DNA from: a virus
Taxonomy: Duplodnaviria > Caudoviricetes
IMG/VR virus record: IMGVR_UViG_3300044448_001125
Location: 1 to 24,762 of that record
Length of the DNA: 24,762 bases
Strand: one strand, 5' to 3'
Below are positions 10,198-23,632 of this stretch, piece by piece. Position numbers and translations under genes: made by a program. The notes beneath the pieces were generated by a model that had not been told where the DNA came from, did no database searches, and was given only the letters and a program-made list of their open reading frames with translations. Numbering within the stretch: the stretch's first letter is position 1; every line of letters starts with the position of its first letter.

Positions 10198-11390
10198 TAC
10201 TTTGTGCTTTTTATTCTATAAATAATAGAAATATCATTAATAGCAAAATTAGCATCTGTAGACGTACCGCCAACAACTAATTGAAAGCTATTAACATTAT
10301 TAATAGAGCTAACAGGTTTTAACTCTGCTTTTAGCCAGTCAGATGTTCCTACAGAGGAGCCATGCAATGGAGTAGTAGAATCTGTTGCATTTGAAGAAGA
10401 ACCATCAGAATTAATTTTGTAAAAATTTCCAAGAGTTCCTGCATTTTCTCCATTCACTCTGTATCCAATAGTAATTCCGCTACCATCACCCTTGTAAGAT
10501 ACATAAACTTTGTATATTTTTTTTCTTACAGAAGGATTTCCGAAGTCGATGTCCATACTTTTTAAACTAATATTGGATTTTGTAGAAGATGCATCAGAAA
10601 AGGTTTTAGGAGTTAATGATGTAACATGAACTAAGTCTTCATTGTAGTCATTAATAAAGTTTGATTTTACAGCATCTGCAAATGTTGTATTATGGCCTTT
10701 TACCCAACTAGATGTTATCATATCATATATATAACAAGCACCTACTCCCGAATCACTACTAGAATCAACAATTATTAATTGACGTTTTTTTGGCAAATAA
10801 CCAATCATTGGAGAATGTGTGCCTATAAAAGAACTCCAAGTATCTTGAGATACTCTCTGTATTCCTTGTTTTTCAAGTAAGTTTCTTATATTTTGACCAT
10901 CGTACAAATAACAACCATGTTTATTTACCCAAGCTATACCAAAATCTGTTCTGCATACAGCAGCAGGATTATTTACGCCTTTATGAACGTGCTTAGACTC
11001 TAAAAACTCAACCTGACCACCTACATTTATACAATATAAAGTATTTTTTTTATATTGAAATATTTTATCACCATACTCCGCTAGCGCAGTTATTTCTTCA
11101 CCATCATTAACTGCCGCTTCTATTTTATTAAATGTTGCAAAAGAGTCAAATTGATTAACAACAGACTTATACATAGCATCGCTTTCTACTTTTATAGAAC
11201 CCCTTCTTCTAGAAAAAGCTTGAACATTAGCCACATATGCAGTTCTGTTTACGACAACAACGTGTTTGTATTTTAAATCTACTTTAAATTCATCTTCAAC
11301 GTGCATTGGCAGTCTTTCTATTAAAACAGGGGTTGGAAACCTGTATCCTAAATGATATTTACCCGGATTCATTTGTGCATAATTAGCCAT
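10197..11390 (-). CDS. Tail tubular/nozzle-like protein, C-terminal-type part (397 aa)
   Basis: Beta-propeller-like segments (GEEITALAEYGDKIFQYKKNTLYCIN; GIAWVNKHGCYLYDG; YIYDMITSSW) and the ending DIDFGNPSVRKKIYKVYVSY...INDISIIYR, characteristic of P22 gp10/T7 gp12-position proteins. Confidence 0.7.
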   Translation of the reverse strand: MANYAQMNPGKYHLGYRFPTPVLIERLPMHVEDEFKVDLKYKHVVVVNRTAYVANVQAFSRRRGSIKVESDAMYKSVVNQFDSFATFNKIEAAVNDGEEITALAEYGDKIFQYKKNTLYCINVGGQVEFLESKHVHKGVNNPAAVCRTDFGIAWVNKHGCYLYDGQNIRNLLEKQGIQRVSQDTWSSFIGTHSPMIGYLPKKRQLIIVDSSSDSGVGACYIYDMITSSWVKGHNTTFADAVKSNFINDYNEDLVHVTSLTPKTFSDASSTKSNISLKSMDIDFGNPSVRKKIYKVYVSYKGDGSGITIGYRVNGENAGTLGNFYKINSDGSSSNATDSTTPLHGSSVGTSDWLKAELKPVSSINNVNSFQLVVGGTSTDANFAINDISIIYRIKSTK

Positions 11391-11845
11391 TACAACTCCA
11401 CATATATTCTTTTTATTTTATCAAGACCCATATCTCTATGCTTTGGTTTGACAAGCATAATTTGTTTTTCCCAAAGATTGCCATATATATTAGTGTATTT
11501 TATAAAATCCCAATTTTCAAGTTTTTTATTGCTGTAGACATATCGCTTTACAATTTTATCTCTATTTTTATATAAGTCATTTCCACTCATTTTTATTACT
11601 TCTGGAATATATTGAGATATTTGCGTGTCAATTGGTTTGCCATCTTTTTCTTTTTTATTGTAAAAACTTTTTAAAAGAGGCTCCCAGTCTTTTTTGTTAT
11701 TATAATTGTCGTATACTGCAATATCATAATCTTTAAAATCTTTTTCATTTCTTGCAAAACTACCTGTTAAATAAAAAATAAATCTATTACCATGTTTTAT
11801 TTTTAAATTACTAACTATAGAATTAACTACTTCCACCATAACCAT
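11390..11845 (-). CDS. Small Pol-beta-superfamily nucleotidyltransferase-like protein (~149-151 aa)
   Basis: FYLTGSFARNEKDFKDYDIAVY matches the hG[GS]x(9-13)DhD signature, with a candidate third Asp in PIDTQI. Overlaps both neighbours and is visibly more AT-rich than they are. Confidence 0.75.
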   Translation of the reverse strand: MVMVEVVNSIVSNLKIKHGNRFIFYLTGSFARNEKDFKDYDIAVYDNYNNKKDWEPLLKSFYNKKEKDGKPIDTQISQYIPEVIKMSGNDLYKNRDKIVKRYVYSNKKLENWDFIKYTNIYGNLWEKQIMLVKPKHRDMGLDKIKRIYVEL

Positions 11846-13553
11846 CCGATTTATTTAAGTCTGTAAACAAGATAACACCAGAATCTGTTATTGTAACTTC
11901 ATTTTCTGCTCTTCTCATAATATTAAAGTTTTCATCTAATAATTCAACAGAAAATTTGTGTAAACCCGGAGAAGGATTTATAACATTAAATGTTTTTGCT
12001 TGTGCAGATGTACTGCTTAAGTCAACCTCTTGATAAAGTGGACTATTTTGAAAGCCTAATAACCTTAAAGTTCCAACTCTATTTACACCCTTAGATTGTT
12101 CTAAATTTAAGGTAGCAACACAAGTATTGTCTTCAGCTTGACCATCATAAGATTCAGTATCTGATTGAGTAGCTAAAGACAAAGAGTCTGCTGTGCTTGT
12201 AGTTTTCCAATAACCCGCTAATGTATTGCCACCAGCAGATGTAATGTTTGCCCCTGCATCAGAATTGTATGTTTCCCAACCATGTTCTCCGCCTTCAAGT
12301 AAATCGAATTCTTTCAATAAAAACCACTCATCTGAAGTATATGCTTTTGTATAAAGCCTAACTCCAATTATTCTTTCATCAATCAAGGGATGACCATCAG
12401 ATTCAGTAATACTTGAGTCGTCTAAATCTGGGTGAGTTATATATAGTTGAACATTTAATATTTCTTCATGTATTTGTAATGGAGAAGAACCTACAGTTGA
12501 TATTGGCCCTTCTTGATTGCCTTCATAAACAGGTGTTAATCCTATCCAGTAAGAACCATTCCAAAAGCCAGAATCGCTTTCTGTTGCGGTAAACCAGTAA
12601 GCAACTATTATTTTATTTACAACATTAATTTGGCTTGAAGTAGGAGAACTGCTATTAGCATCATAAAGTTCCATTGTGACTCCAAGATTGTCAAGCGACC
12701 TTAGATGTTGTATGTTGTTATACCATTTATGAGTTTTATATGCAGAATCTCCAGCGTTGGTTTGAAAAAAGTTTTCATTTATATATCCATACCATTGATT
12801 CATATTTATTATAAAAATATCTTTATTATTATCGTGTTGAACTATTTTAGTGCCAAATAAACCCCTAATAACTGTTAAATCATGTGTAGCTTTAGATTTT
12901 ACATAAATTATTTCATCTTCTATTTTTAAATAATTTCCAACTAAAAAATGAGCGCCATTATCAACTGTTAAAGTAGTATCTGTAGATAGAAAGTGACTTG
13001 CGTCATTAATATCTGAACCTGAATCATATGTTTTAAATTCTCCAGTTGAAACCCTAAGAACTCCATCAACAGAATAAAAACATGGCCTTGCAACAGCACC
13101 TGTTGATTTTCCTAAAAATTGAATTGGGCCTTGGTCTGTATCTTCCCAAACATCAGACCAAACATCACCATTAAGAGTGTATATAAAAACACTTGGGCCA
13201 ACAGATGAAGTACCTGCTGAATCGTCATACAAACAAAGATAGCTGTCTCCTGATTCAGCCACAAAAGAAGCTCCGTCTGAATTTGCATATCTAGCTTGTG
13301 CGCCTCGCCTATCGTGACTAAAAAAGAAAAAACCACTTCCACTAACTTGTGTAAACGCAGAACCATATGCATTCCCATCAATTGCTGGAGCATCAGAATG
13401 ATTAACAACAGAACCCATAGTTCTAATTAATCCAACTTTGTCAACCATTAAGTTTGTAACTTCAACAAACTCATCTTGCTGTATGTCTCTTGGGTCGGAA
13501 TTATCGTTTATTCCTCCATGAAATCCTTCGATTTTGTATACATTCTTTGGCAT
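11823..13553 (-). CDS. Tail tubular/nozzle-like protein, N-terminal-type part (576 aa)
   Basis: Begins MPKNVYKIEGFHGGINDNSDPRDIQQDEFVEVTNL. The FxGGxN...P start is typical of podovirus nozzle/stabilisation proteins, and the gene follows the adaptor genes. Confidence 0.7.
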   Translation of the reverse strand: MPKNVYKIEGFHGGINDNSDPRDIQQDEFVEVTNLMVDKVGLIRTMGSVVNHSDAPAIDGNAYGSAFTQVSGSGFFFFSHDRRGAQARYANSDGASFVAESGDSYLCLYDDSAGTSSVGPSVFIYTLNGDVWSDVWEDTDQGPIQFLGKSTGAVARPCFYSVDGVLRVSTGEFKTYDSGSDINDASHFLSTDTTLTVDNGAHFLVGNYLKIEDEIIYVKSKATHDLTVIRGLFGTKIVQHDNNKDIFIINMNQWYGYINENFFQTNAGDSAYKTHKWYNNIQHLRSLDNLGVTMELYDANSSSPTSSQINVVNKIIVAYWFTATESDSGFWNGSYWIGLTPVYEGNQEGPISTVGSSPLQIHEEILNVQLYITHPDLDDSSITESDGHPLIDERIIGVRLYTKAYTSDEWFLLKEFDLLEGGEHGWETYNSDAGANITSAGGNTLAGYWKTTSTADSLSLATQSDTESYDGQAEDNTCVATLNLEQSKGVNRVGTLRLLGFQNSPLYQEVDLSSTSAQAKTFNVINPSPGLHKFSVELLDENFNIMRRAENEVTITDSGVILFTDLNKSDGYGGSS

Positions 13554-14206
13554 TATCTACTTGAAACCATAAAAGGAGCAAGTGCATTTGCATATTCAGA
13601 TAACAATTCTTGATATTGCGCTCTATGCATAGCTACTACTTCACTATCTTCATCTTCATTAAAAAAAGTTATTTGCCTTTGTTTAAGTCTTGCGCTAGCA
13701 CCTAAAACCAATGCGTGTTCTAGCTCGTTTGGAAACTTAGCAACAGTATCAGCACTATGTAATATTGTAGGATTTTCCATAGAATAATATCTACTTGGAT
13801 TTGCGCTTGCCGGCTCAGGATATACATAAACATCATTATCATTAAAAGTCCACCTTGGAGATTCGTCTGTTGCAAAAAATATACTGTGAGGATTTTGAAT
13901 TTTTCCTTGTAATGATGCATCTAAATAAACACAGGAAACATATAAATCAGTGGTATCATCAGACTCTCTTCTTTCAACCAATACTATTCTACTGTTTTCG
14001 ATGTTGCTAGCAATTGGATTTGAAGTAACATTAGAAGATTTAGTTGCAAATTGCACTAAAATATCAGGATTTACTTTATTTATTATATCGCTAGCAGTAT
14101 CTTGCAAAGCATCTTGAATTGCTTGTTCATTTGCTGAGGCATTATCGCTTCCAACACTTGCAGTAGCTCCTATTATATCTTCTATTCTTACTTGAAAAGT
14201 AGCCAT
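13553..14206 (-). CDS. Head-tail adaptor / tail tubular A-like protein (217 aa)
   Basis: Helical N-terminus, VYVYPEP motif and C-terminal FPNELEHALVLGASARL, all typical of adaptor proteins. TAATG overlaps at both ends. Confidence 0.65.
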   Translation of the reverse strand: MATFQVRIEDIIGATASVGSDNASANEQAIQDALQDTASDIINKVNPDILVQFATKSSNVTSNPIASNIENSRIVLVERRESDDTTDLYVSCVYLDASLQGKIQNPHSIFFATDESPRWTFNDNDVYVYPEPASANPSRYYSMENPTILHSADTVAKFPNELEHALVLGASARLKQRQITFFNEDEDSEVVAMHRAQYQELLSEYANALAPFMVSSR

Positions 14207-15123
14207 TAGTCATCTGCTCCTGTAGTATTTTCAATAGAACCATTTCTTGTAGTTACAAATACCTGCATTGGATTTGGAATCAAATGAGGCATAGGTTCTT
14301 TTGCGCGTGATGTTTCCATGTAGTCTTGCTCTATCTTTCTTGCCAATCCCATATGCCCGCTACCAACTTGAAGATTTCCTCCAAGATTTAAAAAATGACC
14401 CAAAGTGCAATGTATTGCCGCTGGAATTAGTTGTTGAGGAAGGTCAACCCTACTTGATAAGCTAGTTTTTTCTTCTGGGCTAGCATAGTAATAAACTCTA
14501 AGGCCATTATCTGAGCTAGGATTTTTAGTTAAATATAACTTATGCGTGTTTTGTTGCCATACGCCACCACTTGAATATGCTGTTGTTACACTTGAAGAAT
14601 CAACTGCTACAGAAAAATTATTATCATCAACTTTTGTTACGGCTAGTCGCTTGCTATTTAAGTGAGAAACTTTGCTAGCGGTTACATAGTGACCTTTTAT
14701 TTCGCTAAATATAACAAAGTCGCCAGTTGCCAGTCCATGAGAATTAGACGTTACTACAGTTGGGCTTGCTCCTGTCACGTTTGTTATAGACCCATTTGAA
14801 ACATCTGTTTTGATATAATAACCAATTTTAGATACTTCATCATCATCTACATTAGATATAATTGCTGATTCATCTACAAAAGGAACATCTGTCTGGTCTA
14901 GTTCTACCTTGTATATTTGCCCAGAGTAATTTGCTTTTGTAAAAATATACTCTTTACCGCTAGCAGTAAATGTTTGTGAGTCTTTTTTACGAACTGCCCT
15001 CATTGCGATTTCTTTTATTGCTTGGTCAAAGTATATCTCAATTAAATTATGAGACACAGGCAGTTCTATTCCACCAGCTATAACCCCAGCATCAATAAGT
15101 TCGTATGCTTCTTGGTATCGCAT
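14206..15123 (-). CDS. Head-tail adaptor-like protein with an inserted beta domain (305 aa)
   Basis: Adaptor-like frame (IEIYFDQAIKEIA...LRVYYYASP...DLPQQLIPAAIH) interrupted by ITNVTGASPTVVTSNSHGLATGDFVIFS...VTKVDDNNFSV. Confidence 0.65.
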   Translation of the reverse strand: MRYQEAYELIDAGVIAGGIELPVSHNLIEIYFDQAIKEIAMRAVRKKDSQTFTASGKEYIFTKANYSGQIYKVELDQTDVPFVDESAIISNVDDDEVSKIGYYIKTDVSNGSITNVTGASPTVVTSNSHGLATGDFVIFSEIKGHYVTASKVSHLNSKRLAVTKVDDNNFSVAVDSSSVTTAYSSGGVWQQNTHKLYLTKNPSSDNGLRVYYYASPEEKTSLSSRVDLPQQLIPAAIHCTLGHFLNLGGNLQVGSGHMGLARKIEQDYMETSRAKEPMPHLIPNPMQVFVTTRNGSIENTTGADD

Positions 15124-15244
15124 TTTTCTTTCTCTTTTTACGTTTTTTACGAATACGAGATTTTTTAGTGCCTAACGTGGTCATCAATCTTGATGAACCA
15201 TCGCTAAACTTTGTTGCTCCAGTTCCGTATGTTATATCTTTCAT
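15092..15244 (-). CDS. 50-aa basic protein resembling the MCP N-terminus (not in ORF track)
   Basis: ATG 15244 to TGA 15092: MKDITYGTGATKFSDGSSRLMTTLGTKKSRIRKKRKKRKKNAIPRSIRTY. Weak AGGT RBS. Fills the gap between MCP and adaptor. Confidence 0.8.
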   Translation of the reverse strand: MKDITYGTGATKFSDGSSRLMTTLGTKKSRIRKKRKKRKKNAIPRSIRTY

Positions 15245-15255
15245 ATTTCAACCTA

Positions 15256-15281
15256 TTTGAGGGCGGTTGCCCGCCCCCAAA
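15256..15281 (-). terminator. Strong hairpin after the MCP stop (terminator/attenuator or 3' stabiliser)
   Basis: Minus strand TTTGG-GGGCGG-GCAA-CCGCCC-TCAAA forms an 11-bp stem with one G-U pair and a GNRA tetraloop. There is no following U tract, so termination is uncertain. Confidence 0.55.
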
Positions 15282-15293
15282 CGATTATTAGGC

Positions 15294-16754
15294 TTAGACC
15301 AGCTTTAGAACAGCATGGGTTTGTTCGTTACGAACTTCCATACCAACTTCCATTAGCCACTCGTCAGTTTGACCATCGCGACCATCCTGAACGATGTCTT
15401 TACGAAGTTGCATATCGCGACCAGCCAAAGGACGAACTGAAAAGTTCGCAGGGTCAATCGCAATCGCATAATCTTCATATGCGCCTTTTAGATAAGGATG
15501 AGACACAAAGTCAAGCTCACCAACAGGGCCGAGATAAGAACGAACTCTTAATCCACCCTTGGTTTCTTCACCAGAATCATAGAATCCAGTATCTGCACCT
15601 CTTGTCATGGATGCTAACTTAACCATCCACTTATTTGATGCAAAAACTGTTTTTCTCATGCTACCTGCTACCATATCTGAGAATATAAATTCAACAACTG
15701 AATCCATATCATTCAATGCACCACTAGAGTAGTTTAATTGCAGATTTGTGTTGTCATATCCATTTAAAGAAGTGATAGACCCATTAGAACTACCTAGGCC
15801 TATGCCTTGGAATGTTCTTTTTGGATTTTCTGCACTAGCATCAAGAGAAATAGCTCCATTGGTAAGCATAGCAAACTCAATGTCACCTTTTATCTTAGCT
15901 AGCTTTCTAGCTTGCAACCTTGAAAGCTCAGGGCCACCATACTGTTGCGACACCTTTGCAGTGTTGGTTATTGTGTATGGCTCGCGAAAAATTTGCGTAC
16001 AGTTTTTCAACCTACGTACCTTTTTACGAGTTTCAACCCCAACAGCAGAACCTTCAGCAATTCCAGCTATTCCATTTTCTCTAATGAAATAGTCAGCATC
16101 AGCAAAATTAGCTTCTCCGAAACCATTGCTTCCGCTATGATTTTGATAGCCATAATAAGATGTTGCAGTTCCAGCATCGTAAAATAGACCAGCATTTGCA
16201 ACATAACTTAATGTTAGCACACCAGAAGCGTCTGCCGTAATAAGGTCTGAGCCATCAGCGCAAGCTTCTACTAAATAAGCATCAAGACTACCATGAACGT
16301 GCGCTCCAACAAACTGAGCCATTTTATCTGTTGCGCTAGCATGATTTACATCCTTACCAACAGCAATGCAAATAAAATGAGTAACAGCAGTTTGAAGAGC
16401 TGCTGAACCACCTGCAATGCTAGCAGAATAAATACCACCAACTTCAAACAGTTCCATTTGAGCTTGTCTTTCTGCAATTAAGATTGTGTGATGACCATTA
16501 ATGCCACCTGATGCCGTATCAGCAACATCTGTAGAAGTTACATTAAACTTCTCGCTTTTTTTAATCATGTACTCGTCTTCCATCCACTCAAATATAGGGA
16601 CTGGAGTCAAAACTGACTGTTGTCCAAAAAGTGAGAAAATGGGAGTAACATTTGGATTGTAGTAGTGGATTTTGTCACCTAATTCCAAGACCTGTCTTTG
16701 AGACCCGTCTGAAAATTGTAACGCAGTTCCAGCACCATAACTAGTTGTAGACAT
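15294..16754 (-). CDS. Major capsid protein (HK97 fold, DUF5309/SU10-like; 486 aa)
   Basis: GGAGGT RBS, follows portal and scaffold. Motifs TPIFSL...FEWMED, NCTQIFREPYTITNTA, KIKGDIEFAMLTNG, RTFQGI and the C-terminal EVGMEVRNEQTHA. Confidence 0.9.
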   Translation of the reverse strand: MSTTSYGAGTALQFSDGSQRQVLELGDKIHYYNPNVTPIFSLFGQQSVLTPVPIFEWMEDEYMIKKSEKFNVTSTDVADTASGGINGHHTILIAERQAQMELFEVGGIYSASIAGGSAALQTAVTHFICIAVGKDVNHASATDKMAQFVGAHVHGSLDAYLVEACADGSDLITADASGVLTLSYVANAGLFYDAGTATSYYGYQNHSGSNGFGEANFADADYFIRENGIAGIAEGSAVGVETRKKVRRLKNCTQIFREPYTITNTAKVSQQYGGPELSRLQARKLAKIKGDIEFAMLTNGAISLDASAENPKRTFQGIGLGSSNGSITSLNGYDNTNLQLNYSSGALNDMDSVVEFIFSDMVAGSMRKTVFASNKWMVKLASMTRGADTGFYDSGEETKGGLRVRSYLGPVGELDFVSHPYLKGAYEDYAIAIDPANFSVRPLAGRDMQLRKDIVQDGRDGQTDEWLMEVGMEVRNEQTHAVLKLV

Positions 16755-16778
16755 TTCTACCTCCGTTTATGTTACAGC

Positions 16779-16809
16779 AATGCTACAATCCTATATAGAT
16801 TATAGCACT
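16779..16809 (-). promoter_or_regulatory. Stem-loop between the scaffold stop and the MCP RBS
   Basis: Minus strand AGTGCTATAATC-TATATAG-GATTGTAGCATT forms a 12-bp stem with two G-U pairs. Confidence 0.5.
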
Positions 16810-17698
16810 ACGTATTTGTATTATTAAATTCCATAATTCCTTTCCAAAAATCATCAACTGCTTTTTCTTCAGGTTCAATAGCTTGAGGAGCGTTACCACT
16901 TACAGAGGCCGCGCTATTCTGCTTGTTTTTAACCTTTGGAGCCTGTTGAGCTACTTCTGGTTTGGAATTATTCCCTTTGTTAGACAATGTTTTCCAAATA
17001 TTAACTAAGTTCTCCTGAGATACATTATTTGGGTCAGCCATAAATTGTCTATATTCAACAATATCTGTATCGCTTAACCCCATTTTCTGTAACTCTATAG
17101 TCTCTGCGTCAAATGCCTGAGACTCAGTAAGTTCAGACTTTAACTTTTCAACTTCTAGCATGGCTTGAGTAGCGCCCTGACTTATAAGCCATTGGTCATG
17201 CTCTGCTCTCCATTTTGCGGAGCTAGAGTTATCAATGCTTTCATCGAGAATATCATAATCATCTGGCTTAACAGGCGGTGCATTCATATCCCTTTGTTTT
17301 TCTTGAACTGATTCTGTCAGTTTTTGAACTACATCTGGATTATTTGAAAGAAATTCATCTAATTGCGCTAACTTTTCATACTTACCTTTTTCAGCAGTCC
17401 ATTCGTTTTTATCTTTATCAGACTTTGACTGAAGTTGTTTGTATGCGTCAGCGAGTTTTTGAACTCCTTCTTCATCATTTGCGAATTTATTCTCAATTAA
17501 CCATTGCTCAACCTTAGATTGTTCACTTGGTTCTTCATTGTCATTATTCTCATCAGGTTTAGTTTCTAGAACTTCTTCTTCCTGAGGTTCTTCAACCTCT
17601 GATTCCGGTGAAGAGCCTGAGTTGAACTCATCAAGTTCAGCTAAAAGGTTATCTTCGTTCATTACTTCTTCCTGATTGTTTTGGTCTTCATTTGTCAT
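16808..17698 (-). CDS. Capsid scaffolding protein (296 aa)
   Basis: AAGGAG RBS. Very acidic and coiled-coil-like (KLADAYKQLQSK), located between portal and MCP. Confidence 0.8.
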   Translation of the reverse strand: MTNEDQNNQEEVMNEDNLLAELDEFNSGSSPESEVEEPQEEEVLETKPDENNDNEEPSEQSKVEQWLIENKFANDEEGVQKLADAYKQLQSKSDKDKNEWTAEKGKYEKLAQLDEFLSNNPDVVQKLTESVQEKQRDMNAPPVKPDDYDILDESIDNSSSAKWRAEHDQWLISQGATQAMLEVEKLKSELTESQAFDAETIELQKMGLSDTDIVEYRQFMADPNNVSQENLVNIWKTLSNKGNNSKPEVAQQAPKVKNKQNSAASVSGNAPQAIEPEEKAVDDFWKGIMEFNNTNT

Positions 17699-17722: not shown

Positions 17723-19729
17723 CTATGCTTGCGGAGCTTTTGGTTCTGAGTTAATCGTTTGCTTTGCAATAGATAGTTCCTCACCGACCATGCGAGTCCT
17801 ATCTCTTTGTCGCGCTTCTTCCAGCTTAGCATTTGATTTGATTTTAGTAACTGCCTCACTTACAGGTTTGGTAGCTTCGCTAATTTCAGCTCTCATGTTA
17901 GCATGGAATACTTCGCGCTCTCTAGTTTGCAAGTCACCTTGCATTGTCTTGAGTTCTTGTTGCGCTTGTTGCAATTGCGCTTGTAAGTTTCCTATCTCTC
18001 CCATTCTCTGCATAAGCGATGATTTATCAATATCGCCTTTCATATTCATAATAACTTGAGTTTTATCATAAATACCAGCACTTAGAAGAGTTAAATCTTT
18101 TTGAAGTTCAGCCATTGGCGACTTACTTCTAGTAGAACCGACTACAACTCTTACATCGAATCTAGCCGTTTCCATATCATATAATTTTTTTACTGCACCT
18201 GTTTTGTCATCAATAACAGGAATATTTAATCTTACTTCATTCTCATCGCCTGTAGGGCTTACAATTCTTAATGTTCTCTGTTGTTCATAAACATTAGGCA
18301 TCCATTGAGTAACAACCTTTGCAGTTCTTGTAAGCATATCATATATAGGCAGTATTTTCCAATTTTGTTTTCTTGATGATGATTCATCCATTATTTGCGC
18401 TTCACCAACAGTACCGGGTGCGCCTTGGGCATTTCCCTGAAGAAACTTATAAGCGCCAAAAACTGTTTCTATATCAACCTCGTATCTGCCTTTTTCTGCG
18501 TATAAACTTGATGATACTGCTGGTGGAGCAAATTCTTTTATTTTACCAGATGCCAATGCTCCGGGGTTAGCCCTTATTATAGCATTTGGTATATGCCACT
18601 TCTGTATTTCGCTAGCATCTATAGCGCCATCTTCATATAATAACTTAAAATTAGTAGTAGCATTGGTATGAGATATAATTAAAGCCTCAGTTCTATTTAA
18701 CATTCTCTGAGGAGTCTTTGCATGACGAACATCTCCACTTGGATATGGTGTTCCGGCGTGTTCGTTACAGGCAACAGCTATAGGATATTCAGAGATAGGC
18801 AGTATTTCATCGTACAAAACAGTATCTCCAACAACAAATACTTCTCTGACCCTTGTTTTATAAACAAGTTGCTCTGTAATAATTCCTTGTTTAATAAACT
18901 CTTCGTATTGCTCATCTTTTACAAGTTCCTTATACTCATCTCTTGTATATGACTGAGTTCTTCCAGTATTTGTATCTAGAATAAGAGCATGAGGAACATT
19001 TACTTTTACAAAGTAACAATATTTTCTTACTCTACTTTGATGGTCTAGTACACCATTTCCTTTTGTTTCAATAAAATCTCTTGAATATTTACCAGAACTT
19101 TGTTCGTTTCTATAGTGGTCTTCTTTAGCGTCTTCTATTTCTTTTGCATATTGAGGAAATAAAATCTTTAAGTGTTCTTTTGTATGTAGGTCAGAGTATA
19201 TAATTGCGCTAGCGTCTGAAAAATCTGGTAGGGAACTGTTTGGGTCAACAAATATAGACTCAGGTGGCATTCTTTTTACTTTGATTGTTCCAAGTCCACC
19301 ATCTCCTTGGTAATCAGGGTATATATACATATAAGCTATACCCTTAACAATAAAATCTTTACAAGCCTGTCTAAAATGTACATCCGCATCAGATTCGTAC
19401 CATATTTTATCAAGCAGTTGGTCAAAGACGAACGCCGCATCATTGTCTGTTTTGCCCACAGCGTGAACATCCCATTCAGGAGCAGATGCGGCGATATTCG
19501 CTAGAACCTGCTCGACGGCGGGACGTATTTTGTTATTAGCTTCGGGGGGCTGACCCACACTAAGCAGGTAATTCTTTTGAGACCTTGTAAGTTGAGAGCC
19601 TAAATAAAACTCATGGTCTTCCGCCATTTGATAACGATATTCGCTAGAAGAGCTTTCGAACAATAAATAGTCCGACCTTACCTCTTCCGCCGAAATTTCT
19701 TTTGTTTCTAGCTTACGTAAGTCTAACAT
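17723..19729 (-). CDS. Portal protein (P22-like, 668 aa)
   Basis: EFYLGSQ...NKIRPAVEQV, IFVDPNS, G-VRHAKTPQRMLN, FDVRVVVGS and a C-terminal Gln-rich coiled coil. Lies between terminase and scaffold. Confidence 0.9.
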   Translation of the reverse strand: MLDLRKLETKEISAEEVRSDYLLFESSSSEYRYQMAEDHEFYLGSQLTRSQKNYLLSVGQPPEANNKIRPAVEQVLANIAASAPEWDVHAVGKTDNDAAFVFDQLLDKIWYESDADVHFRQACKDFIVKGIAYMYIYPDYQGDGGLGTIKVKRMPPESIFVDPNSSLPDFSDASAIIYSDLHTKEHLKILFPQYAKEIEDAKEDHYRNEQSSGKYSRDFIETKGNGVLDHQSRVRKYCYFVKVNVPHALILDTNTGRTQSYTRDEYKELVKDEQYEEFIKQGIITEQLVYKTRVREVFVVGDTVLYDEILPISEYPIAVACNEHAGTPYPSGDVRHAKTPQRMLNRTEALIISHTNATTNFKLLYEDGAIDASEIQKWHIPNAIIRANPGALASGKIKEFAPPAVSSSLYAEKGRYEVDIETVFGAYKFLQGNAQGAPGTVGEAQIMDESSSRKQNWKILPIYDMLTRTAKVVTQWMPNVYEQQRTLRIVSPTGDENEVRLNIPVIDDKTGAVKKLYDMETARFDVRVVVGSTRSKSPMAELQKDLTLLSAGIYDKTQVIMNMKGDIDKSSLMQRMGEIGNLQAQLQQAQQELKTMQGDLQTREREVFHANMRAEISEATKPVSEAVTKIKSNAKLEEARQRDRTRMVGEELSIAKQTINSEPKAPQA

Positions 19730-19742
19730 ATGTTATGTTATA

Positions 19743-19771
19743 ATCTTACAAAACTAAAACCCAATATTCAA
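19743..19771 (-). promoter_or_regulatory. Putative sigma70-type promoter for portal/head genes
   Basis: TTGAAT (19771-19766), 17 bp spacer, TAAGAT (19748-19743), 13 nt upstream of the portal ATG. Confidence 0.55.
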
Positions 19772-20148
19772 AATTTTTTATTTAATAAAATTAAAGTTGA
19801 TATTGGTACTAATAATAACTCAGAAGTATTATCATCTCCGCCATTTACTTTGTGCGCTAAGTCGTTTAAATACATATACTTAACTGCTTTTCTAAGTTTA
19901 TCAACTCTAAACATCAGCATAAACTTTACATCATTTTCTATAGTAAATACGTGAATCCACCACTTTGCTTCTGTTGTTGAAATACCTGACGGCTTACCTC
20001 TAGACTTTATTTCTATCGCCGCATTGCCAGTATCAGCCCATATATCTCTTTCAGTTTTTACTTCAATACTACCTTCACCTTCAAAAAGGTTTCGTATTTT
20101 TTCTTCGTATATTTGACCAAAGTCTAGGTCAATGTCAAAGTTTCCCAC
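19768..20148 (-). CDS. Putative PD-(D/E)XK-type nuclease (126 aa)
   Basis: FDIDLDFGQIYE...IEVKTER...TGNAAIE...KPSGISTTEAKWW, an ExK-motif family common in phages. The GTG start overlaps the terminase TAG (TAGTG). Confidence 0.6.
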   Translation of the reverse strand: MGNFDIDLDFGQIYEEKIRNLFEGEGSIEVKTERDIWADTGNAAIEIKSRGKPSGISTTEAKWWIHVFTIENDVKFMLMFRVDKLRKAVKYMYLNDLAHKVNGGDDNTSELLLVPISTLILLNKKF

Positions 20149-21794
20149 TATGCTTCGACAAAATCTGCTGCGCTAAACATTTGACCAGTCTCCCAGTCAA
20201 CTTCAACTATTGGCGGTGGAGCCATCCAGTCTCCATCTTTATTCTGTTCTACGTCAGGCGCCCATATATCATCAATAGCCCAGCGAAGTGCATCTAGCGT
20301 ATCTTTTTTAAATGTACCATGCTCTTTGAAGTTTAACAACTCTGTTTCTAGCTCTTCATGGCTTTCTTTTAGAAATACAGAATGAGATGCAAAATGAGGT
20401 TGCATTTGTTTTATTCGGTAATACTTAGCCTTTATAGCCTTTCTTGTGTTTATATTATAAAACCTTCCAGTTTCCTTCGAGTGTCTTCTAACATAATCTG
20501 CTAGCATAACATGACCAGTCTCTTCAATTTTAATATCTCTAGGATGATACATATCTGCTAGCTCAAATAACTTGTCTGCTCCATCCATAGGAGCAACCTG
20601 ACCTCTAAAGTAATCAAGAACATATATATTATATTCCTTATCTACAGCTATAACCATAATAACAGTATAGTCAGCTTTTACATTTTCGCTTGATGCTGGG
20701 TCAACTCCCAAGAAAATATTTACTGGTAACTGAACTCTTCTGCCTTCATCAGTTCTCATAATAAAACTTTGGTCTTTTTCATACATATAACGACCTTCCC
20801 AGTACCTCATATCTTTTTGTTTGAATATACGAAAGCTGTCATCAACCGGAATGTTTTGATACTCTTGGTAAAAATATGCAATATCACCTTCTGACTTTAA
20901 TCTTTCTTTTTCTCCCATTAACCATGAATAAGGTCTTCTGTCGGGCCATAATACTTCTACATTACCTTTCTTGTCTGTAAACTCATTACCTGAAGTTGCA
21001 AACCTGCCATGAGGTAAGTCTTGTGGAACTGCTTGAAAAAATAAAGACTTCCAACCCTTGACCTTATAATTACCTTCTTTATCATATGCTAGAGGGCCAG
21101 CGATTCTGTTTAAGTATGCATCCGTATCTACGATTGTACCTATAAATACAAGCTTTGCATCTCCACTACCCGGAATAACTGCGGCGTTTAGCCATCTTCT
21201 AAATTTATCCCTTGCAGTAGGGGTAGTGCTATTTGACTCACCTTCTCCATCATCGATTATTGTTAGAGTTGGACGATATGCACCATACTTTAAACCACGA
21301 ACTTTTTGTCCTGTACCACGTATAAGACACTTGCACATAACATTTGGTCTGCCACTTTCATCTATACCGCCTACTATTTCTTTTTCTTCCTTACCCCATA
21401 TCGGGCCTTTTCTATCTCCAAAGAAGTATTTTATCTTAGGATTAAATTCAATCTCGTTACCAATTGCTTCTAGGTTATACTTTGACTGCATTTCAGATTC
21501 TGAAATCAACAAAAGAAACCTTTCTTCACCAAAAAGTATTCTATGTAAAGGATATATTAAATTTATAAAGGTAGACTTAGCATGGTCTCTAGGCGCTACA
21601 ACAGCTAGCTTATCTCCGCTATCCATGTCAATTAGGGTTTTTGCTATTTCTCTATGAAAATCAGGTGATTTAGACCTGCAATGATAATGCATAGAGTTAT
21701 CAGGGTCTCCAAATAATACTTCAGCAAATGTAAATATATCTAGATACATTAATTCTAGCATAGATTGTTTTGTTTCAGCTTTCGCCATGCTCAC
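20148..21794 (-). CDS. terL: Terminase large subunit (548 aa; alternative ATG start at 21788)
   Basis: Walker A-like APRDHAKST, Walker B LTIIDDGE, coupling motif FIGT, YQEYQN, and RNase H-like nuclease motifs LGVDPA and KKDTLDAL. Confidence 0.95.
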   Translation of the reverse strand: MSMAKAETKQSMLELMYLDIFTFAEVLFGDPDNSMHYHCRSKSPDFHREIAKTLIDMDSGDKLAVVAPRDHAKSTFINLIYPLHRILFGEERFLLLISESEMQSKYNLEAIGNEIEFNPKIKYFFGDRKGPIWGKEEKEIVGGIDESGRPNVMCKCLIRGTGQKVRGLKYGAYRPTLTIIDDGEGESNSTTPTARDKFRRWLNAAVIPGSGDAKLVFIGTIVDTDAYLNRIAGPLAYDKEGNYKVKGWKSLFFQAVPQDLPHGRFATSGNEFTDKKGNVEVLWPDRRPYSWLMGEKERLKSEGDIAYFYQEYQNIPVDDSFRIFKQKDMRYWEGRYMYEKDQSFIMRTDEGRRVQLPVNIFLGVDPASSENVKADYTVIMVIAVDKEYNIYVLDYFRGQVAPMDGADKLFELADMYHPRDIKIEETGHVMLADYVRRHSKETGRFYNINTRKAIKAKYYRIKQMQPHFASHSVFLKESHEELETELLNFKEHGTFKKDTLDALRWAIDDIWAPDVEQNKDGDWMAPPPIVEVDWETGQMFSAADFVEA

Positions 21795-21999
21795 CTGTAA
21801 CTTTTTGTAATAAACTTAATTGTTCTTTATAAGAATCTAGTTCTTCAAGTAATTCAAGAATAAATTTAGCAACTTCACCATCTACAAAATACTGCTCATT
21901 GTCAATATTTATCAAGCCCGGCTGAGATGTGTCTACATCTTTACTCTTGGACTCTTGATGATGTGTGAATTTCTTCGTTTCTATTATCTTTTGTGCCAT
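21775..21999 (-). CDS. Hypothetical protein (~74 aa from ATG 21999; track start 22014)
   Basis: Overlaps both the terS end and the terL start, with a C-terminal coiled-coil-like helix. Confidence 0.55.
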   Translation of the reverse strand: MAQKIIETKKFTHHQESKSKDVDTSQPGLINIDNEQYFVDGEVAKFILELLEELDSYKEQLSLLQKVTGEHGES

Positions 22000-22750
22000 A
22001 CGTTGTTTCCGCAATAGACTTTCTTACAGTAGCTAATTTTTTTATATCACCATCAGATAATGCAAATACACCTTCAATTTGTTCTTCTTTCTTTTCCTTG
22101 GTAAGATGTCCAAGCATATCACTTACCCTGTTCAATGCATTTAATTTAGTAGCTGGGGGTATATCTATATCTTCAATAATATTCTTATATTGACTCGCAA
22201 CATAATCATCGTCCATTCCTAATGCACTTAGCTTGTCTCTCATATTCATAGCAATGTATTCCCTTATGTGTTTTCTTTTTAATATACCCATACCACGACG
22301 CAAAGCTTGCTCAGGGTTATTATCTTTATAAATTGACTGGTAGGCAAGAATAATAGACTCAGAATCCCACATTCCAAGCTTATCTGTCTTACCTTTTAAG
22401 AATAAAGCATCTACAAATGTTCTTTGTTTTGCAGTTGGTCTTACGTTTTTTATTAAATCCTTTCCAAAATAGTATTTATCACGATAATAATTTGGTTGTT
22501 CCTGAGCATATACGTGTTTTTTATGGACACCGCATTCGCCGTATCCAGTACGAATAAAAATATAAGACTTTTTAACGTTTGAAGGGTTTTCTTCTCTTCT
22601 TCCAATAACCTGAATAACCTTTCCATCCTGAGTTTTTATCCAATCGCCTACTTTTGCGGTTCTCCAGTCGTCTATTGGTGTTATATTTTCTTGTTTAGCC
22701 TCTTCTTCAGTATATACATCAAACGTTTTGCCCCGACATTCAACTTTCAT
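21941..22750 (-). CDS. terS: Terminase small subunit with an N-terminal extension (269 aa)
   Basis: The C-terminal half PTAKQRTFVDAL...AYQSIY...LKRKHIREYI...KLNALNRVSDMLG matches the TerS helical pattern, and the gene lies upstream of terL. Confidence 0.7.
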   Translation of the reverse strand: MKVECRGKTFDVYTEEEAKQENITPIDDWRTAKVGDWIKTQDGKVIQVIGRREENPSNVKKSYIFIRTGYGECGVHKKHVYAQEQPNYYRDKYYFGKDLIKNVRPTAKQRTFVDALFLKGKTDKLGMWDSESIILAYQSIYKDNNPEQALRRGMGILKRKHIREYIAMNMRDKLSALGMDDDYVASQYKNIIEDIDIPPATKLNALNRVSDMLGHLTKEKKEEQIEGVFALSDGDIKKLATVRKSIAETTYGTKDNRNEEIHTSSRVQE

Positions 22751-22752
22751 GT

Positions 22753-23139
22753 CTAAGCATTACGTACTTTTCTGGCAATTGACTTACTGTATGTAGCTTT
22801 TCTACGTGACCTAGCGTTTGCAACGCGTTTTTTTCTATTTGTACTAGCTTTTTCGGAGGGAGAAAGACTTTCTCTAACAGATTTTGGCAGATAACGACCT
22901 CTTTTTGACTTTGGCTTCTTTTTATCGCCTTTTGAAACATAATCCCACTTTTGGTCGCCCCATTTTTTAAGCTTGTTGCCAGATGATTTCTTTCCAGAGT
23001 AGGTTCCGCCAGCATCTTTGTAGTATTTAACAGCAAGTTGCATAGCTCTGGCAGAGTGTTTTCCACCCATTTTGGCTTTTGCCCTAGCTTTTGCCCTAGC
23101 CCACTTTGCGGGGTCTTTCTTTTTTGCTGTTCCTGCCAC
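22753..23139 (-). CDS. Basic hypothetical protein, DUF5872-like (128 aa)
   Basis: HSARAMQLAVKYYKDAGGTYSG, LKKWGDQKW and RYLPKS...LSPSEKASTNRKKR. The GTG start overlaps the upstream TAG. Confidence 0.75.
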   Translation of the reverse strand: MAGTAKKKDPAKWARAKARAKAKMGGKHSARAMQLAVKYYKDAGGTYSGKKSSGNKLKKWGDQKWDYVSKGDKKKPKSKRGRYLPKSVRESLSPSEKASTNRKKRVANARSRRKATYSKSIARKVRNA

Positions 23140-23296
23140 TATTTTTTCTTTTTCTTAGACTTCATAATTGCTTGCTGTAACTTTTTTGGTAAAGTTTTCT
23201 GCTTAGCACTTAATATAGTTTTTTTTTACCTTTTGGCATTTTAGGTTTAGTAGCCTTTTTTGACTTACTCATTTTTTTATATTTTTTACCCGGCAT
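23139..23296 (-). CDS. Small Lys-rich protein, split by a frameshift at an A9 run (28 aa as read; ~52 aa if shifted -1)
   Basis: AGGAG RBS and ATG 23296 give MPGKKYKKMSKSKKATKPKMPKGKKKLY*. The -1 frame continues TILSAKQKTLPKKLQQAIMKSKKKKK* and ends in TAG overlapping the next GTG. Confidence 0.7.
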
Positions 23297-23305
23297 GATA
23301 TTCTC

Positions 23306-23632
23306 CTATTTGGATTTTTTATGTCTGTTTGCAAAGTTTCTAGCGGCCTCAACAGAACCAAAGCCCCAAGCTTTTAATGCTAGCGCTTTTCTTGTTGGTC
23401 GGCCTTTCGAATCTTTCATTGGCCCTTTCATTCCAGCAAATCTTGCGGCGAAAGAAACTCTTCTTGGATTGGTTCCGCTTTTAACAGGTGCTTTTAAAGT
23501 TCCGCCAGTCTCTCTTTTATAACTAGCTCTGCCCTTAGCATTGAGTCCACCCTTGGGATTCTGTCCCTCTTTGCGTCTCCATGCTGCGCTTTTTCCTTTT
23601 CTAGCACTTGTTCTTTTTCTGATTCGTTTCAT
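23306..23632 (-). CDS. Basic hypothetical protein, DUF6321-like (108 aa)
   Basis: AWRRKEGQNPKGGLNAKGRASY...LKAPVKSG-NPRRVSFAARFAGMKGPMKD-KGRPTRKALALKAW, a family I recognise from aquatic phages. Start coupled by TAATG. Confidence 0.75.
   Translation of the reverse strand: MKRIRKRTSARKGKSAAWRRKEGQNPKGGLNAKGRASYKRETGGTLKAPVKSGTNPRRVSFAARFAGMKGPMKDSKGRPTRKALALKAWGFGSVEAARNFANRHKKSK

Follow-up and report, generated by a model that had tools for sequence, protein, structure and literature searches.

A small conserved gene in the head operon of uncultured marine podophages resembles the N-terminal arm of their major capsid protein

Introduction

In HK97-fold capsids, the N-terminal arm (N-arm) of the major capsid protein (MCP) extends onto adjacent capsomers. 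At the portal vertex, where one penton is missing, arm contacts are therefore left unmade. The internal proteins of phage T4 are basic and carry an N-terminal tag, the capsid-targeting sequence, which is common to several cargo proteins and is removed by gp21.

According to the parts of the published accounts drawn on here, the N-arms of a T7-like podophage bind subunits in neighbouring capsomers (PMC10575957), those of T4 move out and fold only on expansion (PMC9958956), and T4 gp23 residues 66-91 are disordered in the five portal-facing subunits (PMC7136217). In P74-26, the portal vertex protein (PVP, gp34) is present in five copies; its N-arm joins an MCP beta-sheet and its Lys2 lies in the DNA minor groove (PMC12407722). 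At the crAss001 portal vertex, gp57 serves as the substitute (PMC10172136). The T4 internal proteins IPI-III are small, non-essential and co-assembled into the head (PMC9958956).

Here we analyse a microprotein gene in a 24,762-nt stretch of phage DNA (IMG/VR record IMGVR_UViG_3300044448_001125, positions 1 to 24,762), hereafter the window. A first-pass annotation, made from the letters alone, had proposed that the ORF after the MCP gene copies the capsid N-arm and adds a basic tail, and that the peptide may occupy vacant N-arm sites and tether DNA, or may regulate assembly.

Results

The window is a minus-strand morphogenesis operon of an uncultured phage, the record being 57% complete (Table 1). 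Its MCP scores 128 bits against PF17236 (cut-off 24.1), and its sequence and fold matches, top-ranked in Foldseek, are Vibrio phage VP1 (9IN6), SU10 (7Z45-48) and Pa223 (9NY2); the carriers are marine, uncultured podophages of SU10/VP1 type. The 305-aa gene downstream of the microprotein is likely a neck protein, judging by its position. Two further ORFs are a 126-aa one between terminase and portal, in a PHROG family of unknown function, and a 151-aa one within the tail region. No cultured close relative was found among 50,697 phage records, where the best MCP match reached 26% over half the length. Since four of the five genome-collection matches are Marinimicrobia/Fidelibacterota assemblies (one match lies within a 2.1-Mb chromosome, at 44% MCP identity), the host group is probably Marinimicrobia; short contigs among the matches could be binning errors. 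A related head-tail operon in a chromosome-level Fidelibacterota (Marinimicrobia) assembly (L203; OZ252221.1, 208445-221863) is likely a prophage and a host lead for the phage group.

Table 1 Features of the window, by position
Feature	Position	Strand	Basis or remark
ORF, 151 aa, within tail region	11390-11845	-	weak nucleotidyltransferase matches (E about 0.009)
SU10-type adaptor gene, after 305-aa gene	13553-14206	-	PF24175 SU10_adaptor match
305-aa gene directly downstream of microprotein	14206-15123	-	PF16190 insert; weak PHROG tail matches
Overlap of microprotein and next gene, 32 nt	15092-15123	-	stop-to-start offsets across relatives
Microprotein gene, 50 codons here; family core ~40 aa	15092-15244	-	ORF; relatives; pN/pS
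Microprotein codons 27-41, basic tail	15122-15166	-	12/15 residues K or R, no acidic residue
Microprotein codons 1-26, homologous to MCP residues 1-26	15167-15244	-	alignment, shuffles, profile-profile
Codons T5-Y6-G7	15221-15232		synonymous sites unusually fixed
GC-rich hairpin, MCP stop to microprotein start	15249-15287	-	-26.3 kcal/mol, no U-tract
MCP, SU10 type, HK97 fold, with insertion domain	15294-16754	-	PF17236 E 6.7e-37; fold and sequence matches
MCP codons 1-26, N-arm stretch resembled by microprotein	16677-16754	-	residue conservation in 116 MCPs
Second hairpin	16777-16810	-	z -5.1, no U-tract
Scaffold candidate, 296 aa, acidic	16808-17698	-	identity suggested by position and charge
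P22-like portal	17723-19729	-	head operon
ORF, 126 aa, between terminase and portal	19768-20148	-	phrog_13596
Large terminase	20148-21794	-	head operon
Small ORF just upstream of large terminase	21775-22014	-	homologue marks terminase-side site in sister clade
269-aa gene upstream of terminase	21941-22750		small-terminase position; matches no family
Basic ORF, 128 aa, phrog_14910	22753-23139	-	head of operon
Basic ORF, 28 aa with 13 K/R	23210-23296	-	head of operon
Basic ORF, DUF6321	23306-23632	-	head of operon

The microprotein ORF has 50 codons on the minus strand, starts 49 nt past the MCP stop and carries the sequence given in the first-pass annotation. BLASTP aligns it to the MCP with 14 identities in 28 positions and one gap (E 2e-5). 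The local score of 57 was not reached in 20,000 shuffles of the whole ORF (maximum 53) nor in 20,000 of residues 1-28 (maximum 48), so the alignment to the MCP start that had been claimed is significant in both designs. When the ORF is compared with all 456 stop-to-stop frames of the window, the MCP scores highest apart from the ORF itself (runner-up score 33). The family profile matches the MCP profile over MCP residues 1-28 (probability 94.8%, E 4.9e-8), and a search of its own record with the peptide profile yields nothing at E under 0.001 beyond the ORF and the start of the MCP (E 1.4e-5). Significant similarity is thus restricted to the MCP N-terminus (residues 1-26/28).

The copied stretch belongs to the extreme N-arm of an SU10/VP1-type MCP, as had been proposed, because MCP residues 1-26 lie upstream of, and include, the strand that aligns to VP1 from residue 14 and to SU10 from residue 17 onward. 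Invariant in 116 MCPs are Y6, G7, G9, F14, R20, L23, E24, L25 and G26; the Pfam match begins at residue 19. AlphaFold2 gives residues 1-39 of the MCP monomer a pLDDT under 50 and no resolved arm, and a complex prediction from alignments of two copies of MCP 27-486 plus peptide 1-40 scored 0.00, with controls likewise not folded, so that this score speaks neither for nor against binding. An insertion domain rich in beta structure spans residues from about 65 to 230; it is predicted with good confidence (pLDDT about 85-94), and relatives vary in length there.

The family core reads F/Y-S/T-D-G-x-x-R-x-x-x-x-L. In most members Y, G, G, F/Y, D-G, R and L stand in register with the MCP arm; all share a fixed one-residue deletion relative to it, and one sub-lineage has replaced the YG motif. 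Of the LGxK named in the original alignment, the Leu is nearly invariant and the rest is not family-wide. Scored with an MCP-arm profile, 34 of the 36 variants encoded beside the MCP exceed the best of 8,158 scored shuffles (9,400 made), compared with only 3 of the 11 encoded beside the terminase, the other eight reaching 6.5-12.0 against a shuffle maximum of 14.2. Codons at residues shared with the arm are identical in 78/288 cases (0.27), below the 0.41 expected from codon usage; this match below chance rejects recent gene conversion between the ORF and the MCP start, as well as a shared DNA or RNA motif. The gene likely arose by duplication of the 5' end of the capsid gene, and the most distant MCPs, in which a YG-type arm is still there with no peptide at the sites covered, fit such a derivation.

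We used MCP similarity to collect 79 loci, of which 68 were kept after dropping those in which the MCP match ends early (8) or the stop is cut off (3). The microprotein ORF is present in 48 of these 68, and conservation, which the annotation had asked after, is borne out by its retention in 47 of the 61 viral loci with the next gene located; many loci are near-copies. Selection is purifying and frame-specific: pN/pS over 35 distinct sequences is 0.36 (20 codons) or 0.31 (15 codons), against 1.49 and 2.33 for the two shifted frames; the MCP arm itself gives 0.23. The ORF-finding pattern fixes a few residues, which lowers pN, but a looser pattern gave no extra ORF in the same gaps. Synonymous divergence is high (pS about 0.55). 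The microprotein is a real, conserved and selected phage gene. Within it, codons T5-Y6-G7 are unusually fixed at synonymous sites (ACA in 31, TAC in 34 and GGA in 30 of 35) and later codons vary freely, possibly reflecting a translation-start or RNA constraint.

Members are 36-50 aa long, mostly 38-44. The 50-aa length applies to the ORF of this window; its last ~10 residues only overlap the next gene and are absent from most relatives. Of 39 distinct sequences, 20 have a stop-to-start offset of -1 or -4 to that gene, 12 have one of -23 to -32, and 7 have another small basic ORF between the two. A frameshift fusion of the microprotein to the next gene was rejected, since the offsets differ in frame among relatives. 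Where genes are inserted after the MCP, the microprotein ORF still adjoins the downstream gene. In many relatives (L012, L014, L018, L025, L031, L063, L079 and L167-L173), the MCP hairpin is followed immediately by a variable, low-charge gene of 158-221 aa, which may encode a decoration or fibre protein.

The family is small: the 8,000 scored candidates yield 43 clusters at 90%, and a profile search of 1.84 billion representatives returned seven matches, six of them true; the seventh, the 1,497-aa repeat protein P0166, matches over a 13-residue stretch and was attributed to chance. The microprotein matches no Pfam or PHROG family, and at E up to 0.1 only 2 of 58 members match a PHROG, each a different unnamed family. 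Its description as unannotated is right in this respect, but close relatives are gene-called as hypothetical protein and the sequence is in the ESM Atlas, a search of which gave no usable match. In the AlphaFold2 model, whose pTM is only 0.32, residues 12 and 18 pair in a single beta-bridge at the FSDGS turn and the basic tail contains helices; there is no globular domain of the PVP or gp57 kind. One marine RNA run, containing 0.09 of the words, gave eight contigs that map to the MCP and scaffold genes; the microprotein ORF is covered by none of them, a result that carries no information on its expression.

The hairpin that separates the microprotein start from the MCP stop (z -3.3, 0/200 shuffles) recurs in 53 distinct relatives at a mean of -24.3 kcal/mol. 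An intrinsic terminator with a U-tract after the MCP was looked for in the window and these relatives and not found (U-run in 1/53). The hairpin probably reduces expression downstream of it, either as a site of mRNA processing or as a partial stop. The MCP message would then be set apart and the microprotein made at the lower level of the neck or terminase genes; the hairpin, together with coupling to the next gene or to the terminase, fits a lower dose than that of the MCP. A second strong hairpin means that hairpins flank the MCP gene on both sides.

A second site for the gene lies at the other end of the head operon. In a sister clade, divergent members sit just before the large terminase gene, whose start some of them overlap, and after a homologue of the small ORF upstream of the terminase. 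All 13 new loci inspected out of 26 show this, as do eight more; the site is empty in the window. In 84 wide loci, 41 of which span both sites, the gene was found after the MCP in 33, before the large terminase in 6, at both in 0 and at neither in 2. It always lies within the head/neck operon; further positions may exist. Of the 28 records that we searched whole, nine are at least 90% complete, and eight of these hold one copy; the exception is G023 (99% complete), which like G027, G019, G015 and L202 lacks the gene at both sites. In an MCP tree (FastTree, 49 hand-picked rows, no bootstrap or outgroup), the two sites follow two MCP clades. A gene-less pair is nested in the first clade, which implies loss; four more gene-less rows are sister to the second, where without an outgroup ancestral absence and loss are indistinguishable. 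This tree supersedes an earlier one, in which loci labelled 'none' carry the gene at the terminase site. Since some lineages do without it, the microprotein is accessory. The 269-aa gene in small-terminase position carries AETTYG near its C-terminus, like the start of several microprotein members. AETTYG occurs in 3 of the 12 distinct C-termini listed and near forms in two more, all from the clade whose terminase-side site is empty; it is either chance or a relic of the gene's former site.

The tail (residues 27-41) holds eight Lys and four Arg, and family tails total 359 K, 136 R and 3 D/E in 742 residues. Protamine-like tracts are arginine-dominated; the tail is basic, as had been noted, but lysine-rich rather than of protamine type. 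Three consecutive small, strongly basic, arm-less ORFs head the morphogenesis operon on the minus strand, and related ORFs, several ending in Tyr, shift between the operon head and the MCP gap in relatives. Arm-less basic ORFs occupy this gap both with and without the microprotein, and in G023 and G027 an arm-less lysine-rich ORF sits at the microprotein's own site. The three arm-less ORFs of the window indicate that, in these phages, a basic tail does not require an arm.

The expectation that the peptide would co-vary with the MCP arm of its own phage failed: permutation p values were 0.15-0.31 (31 pairs), and the centred score of cognate pairs was -0.84 (p 0.998; 40 pairs, only six of them terminase-side), slightly below that of non-cognate pairs. 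T8 and G16 are fixed in the microprotein and variable in the MCP, and the MCP's Q13, Q21, E24 and G26 are not kept in the microprotein. Its descent parallels that of the MCP body (rho 0.75) more closely than that of the MCP arm (0.37), and its conservation (0.70) is about that of the MCP C-terminal half (0.73). The microprotein thus appears to be an old paralogue under constraints of its own. Of the original interpretation, a real selected gene, significant similarity, the head/neck operon and the N-arm identity were upheld, but not the co-variation; the proposed mechanism is plausible and weakened by this absence.

The layout has a counterpart in T4. The 54-aa gp61.1 (NP_049649, annotated as hypothetical) matches gp23 residues 58-93 with 46% identity (E 6e-9, 0/10,000 shuffles), followed by a lysine run. 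No sequence homology between gp61.1 and the microprotein family was detected (hhalign probability 0.3%), so two separate origins appear most likely. The first-pass annotation knew of no described example of such an arrangement. Our search found no literature description of such a peptide, with most subscription papers (including the VP1 structure paper) and supplements outside its coverage, but gp61.1 shares the layout. The family thus appears undescribed and, from its alignments, derived from the capsid arm.

Discussion

We tentatively favour, at somewhat under an even chance, the reading that the microprotein is a low-copy head protein with its arm half on a free N-arm site, most plausibly at the portal vertex, and its lysine tail on DNA. 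The arm-like half would take a free N-arm site on the capsid protein, most plausibly one of the five around the portal and otherwise one on the procapsid inner wall before expansion, and the tail would neutralise or anchor DNA near the portal. Its drift from the arm could reflect a different neighbourhood, of portal and DNA rather than a penton subunit. A free arm, a basic tail, a low dose and dispensability together fit the portal-vertex niche best. Counting for it are the homology limited to the extreme arm and visible above shuffles in nearly all MCP-side variants, selection on the protein and not the DNA (pN/pS against codon identity), presence in 39 of 41 two-site loci but never at both sites, retention through a move across the head operon, the dose logic of hairpin and coupling, and the precedents of PVP, gp57, gp23 and gp61.1. 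Counting against it are the lack of tracking of its own arm, the differing fixed residues, the fixed deletion, the YG replacement, the eight terminase-side variants under the shuffle maximum, absence in some lineages and the arm-less basic ORFs; the monomer model also does not give the arm site on the MCP.

Missing co-variation would be accounted for by a looser fit, if the arm half were instead an address tag for internal cargo. The peptide would bind a partner of the MCP arm (scaffold or portal) in procapsid assembly and end as a free internal basic protein, like the T4 internal proteins. The scaffold candidate is strongly acidic (67 D+E vs 29 K+R), and gp61.1 joins an arm copy to a leader that resembles the internal-protein type. 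We nevertheless consider this reading rather unlikely: the arm motif is common only to the microprotein and the MCP, with at most two matches in each of the nine records at least 90% complete, the microprotein has no T4-type leader, and no head-maturation protease family was found by Pfam among the 45 ORFs of the complete relative G034, most of which match no Pfam. Since no such protease family was found there, the microprotein seems to function with no leader to be cleaved.

The same lack of tracking, together with the microprotein's own pattern of invariant residues, the lineage that lost YG, its closer descent with the MCP body than with the arm, and the arm-less basic ORFs that move among the same sites, would also suit a basic DNA-binding peptide built from a piece of the capsid gene, in which the hairpin motif was kept for another job; its likeness to the arm would then stem from ancestry rather than mimicry. 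This is improbable in our estimate, because the shared residues keep the arm register in spite of the synonymous divergence, and the recurrence of the layout in T4 from an unrelated arm suggests that the arm part is selected.

An assembly regulator outside the virion is less probable again. Here a free arm would briefly occupy arm sites of soluble MCP or procapsid, tune nucleation or the timing of expansion, and then be displaced. The abutment or overlap with the terminase start in one clade, the dispensability in some lineages, and the T4 arms that, in the part of the account cited, move and fold only on expansion (PMC9958956) are all compatible with this. A competitor should however track the arm with which it competes, which the microprotein does not, and competition needs no long basic tail. 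That the ORF is a gene fragment in decay, or a leader whose only role is to couple translation of the next gene, is largely refuted and very improbable despite stop/start overlap in 32 of 39 distinct sequences, given frame-specific purifying selection and the same protein motif beside two different downstream genes.

If the portal-vertex reading is extended beyond this family, tailed phages may several times over, each time independently, have turned the first 25-35 residues of their MCP, detached and fitted with a basic tail, into minor head proteins. Such spare arms would fill in at the portal vertex for those of the absent penton and clamp the end of the genome there. This family and gp61.1 would then be two origins, one without and one with a protease leader. 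We hold this to be possible but doubtful. Every phage solved so far completes the five-fold rim at the portal and holds the genome near it in a different way; for this task a free-standing capsid-arm copy would be a minimal solution, one for which we found no literature description. Gene callers and tryptic proteomics readily overlook peptides this small and basic. As T4 gene 61.1 has the same design, a model phage is at hand for testing the idea straight away, and existing cryo-EM maps can be examined again for rim density that has no assignment. The many small basic ORFs of marine-phage head operons would also gain a first clue to their function.

Comparison with known systems

The parent of the microprotein is a member of the SU10/VP1-type MCPs (PF17236; PDB 7Z45-7Z4B, 9IN6), whereas the microprotein has only the first 26 residues and nothing of the HK97 fold. 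The T4 internal proteins IPI-III are, in the part of the account cited above, likewise small, non-essential head proteins, but the microprotein's motif is not spread over several cargo proteins. PVP gp34 of P74-26 and gp57 of crAss001 are small dedicated proteins that offset contacts lost where the portal replaces a penton; unlike the microprotein, whose model has no globular domain, they are folded and globular, and the parts of their accounts drawn on here do not describe them as MCP-arm copies. Like the microprotein, T4 gp61.1 is a stand-alone small copy of the N-terminal arm region of its own MCP, followed by lysines. It differs in its targeting-type leader, in copying the cleavage region of gp23, in its place among replication genes and in its short mixed-charge tail, whereas the microprotein family has no leader and lies within the head operon, and no head protease was recognised in the complete relative searched.
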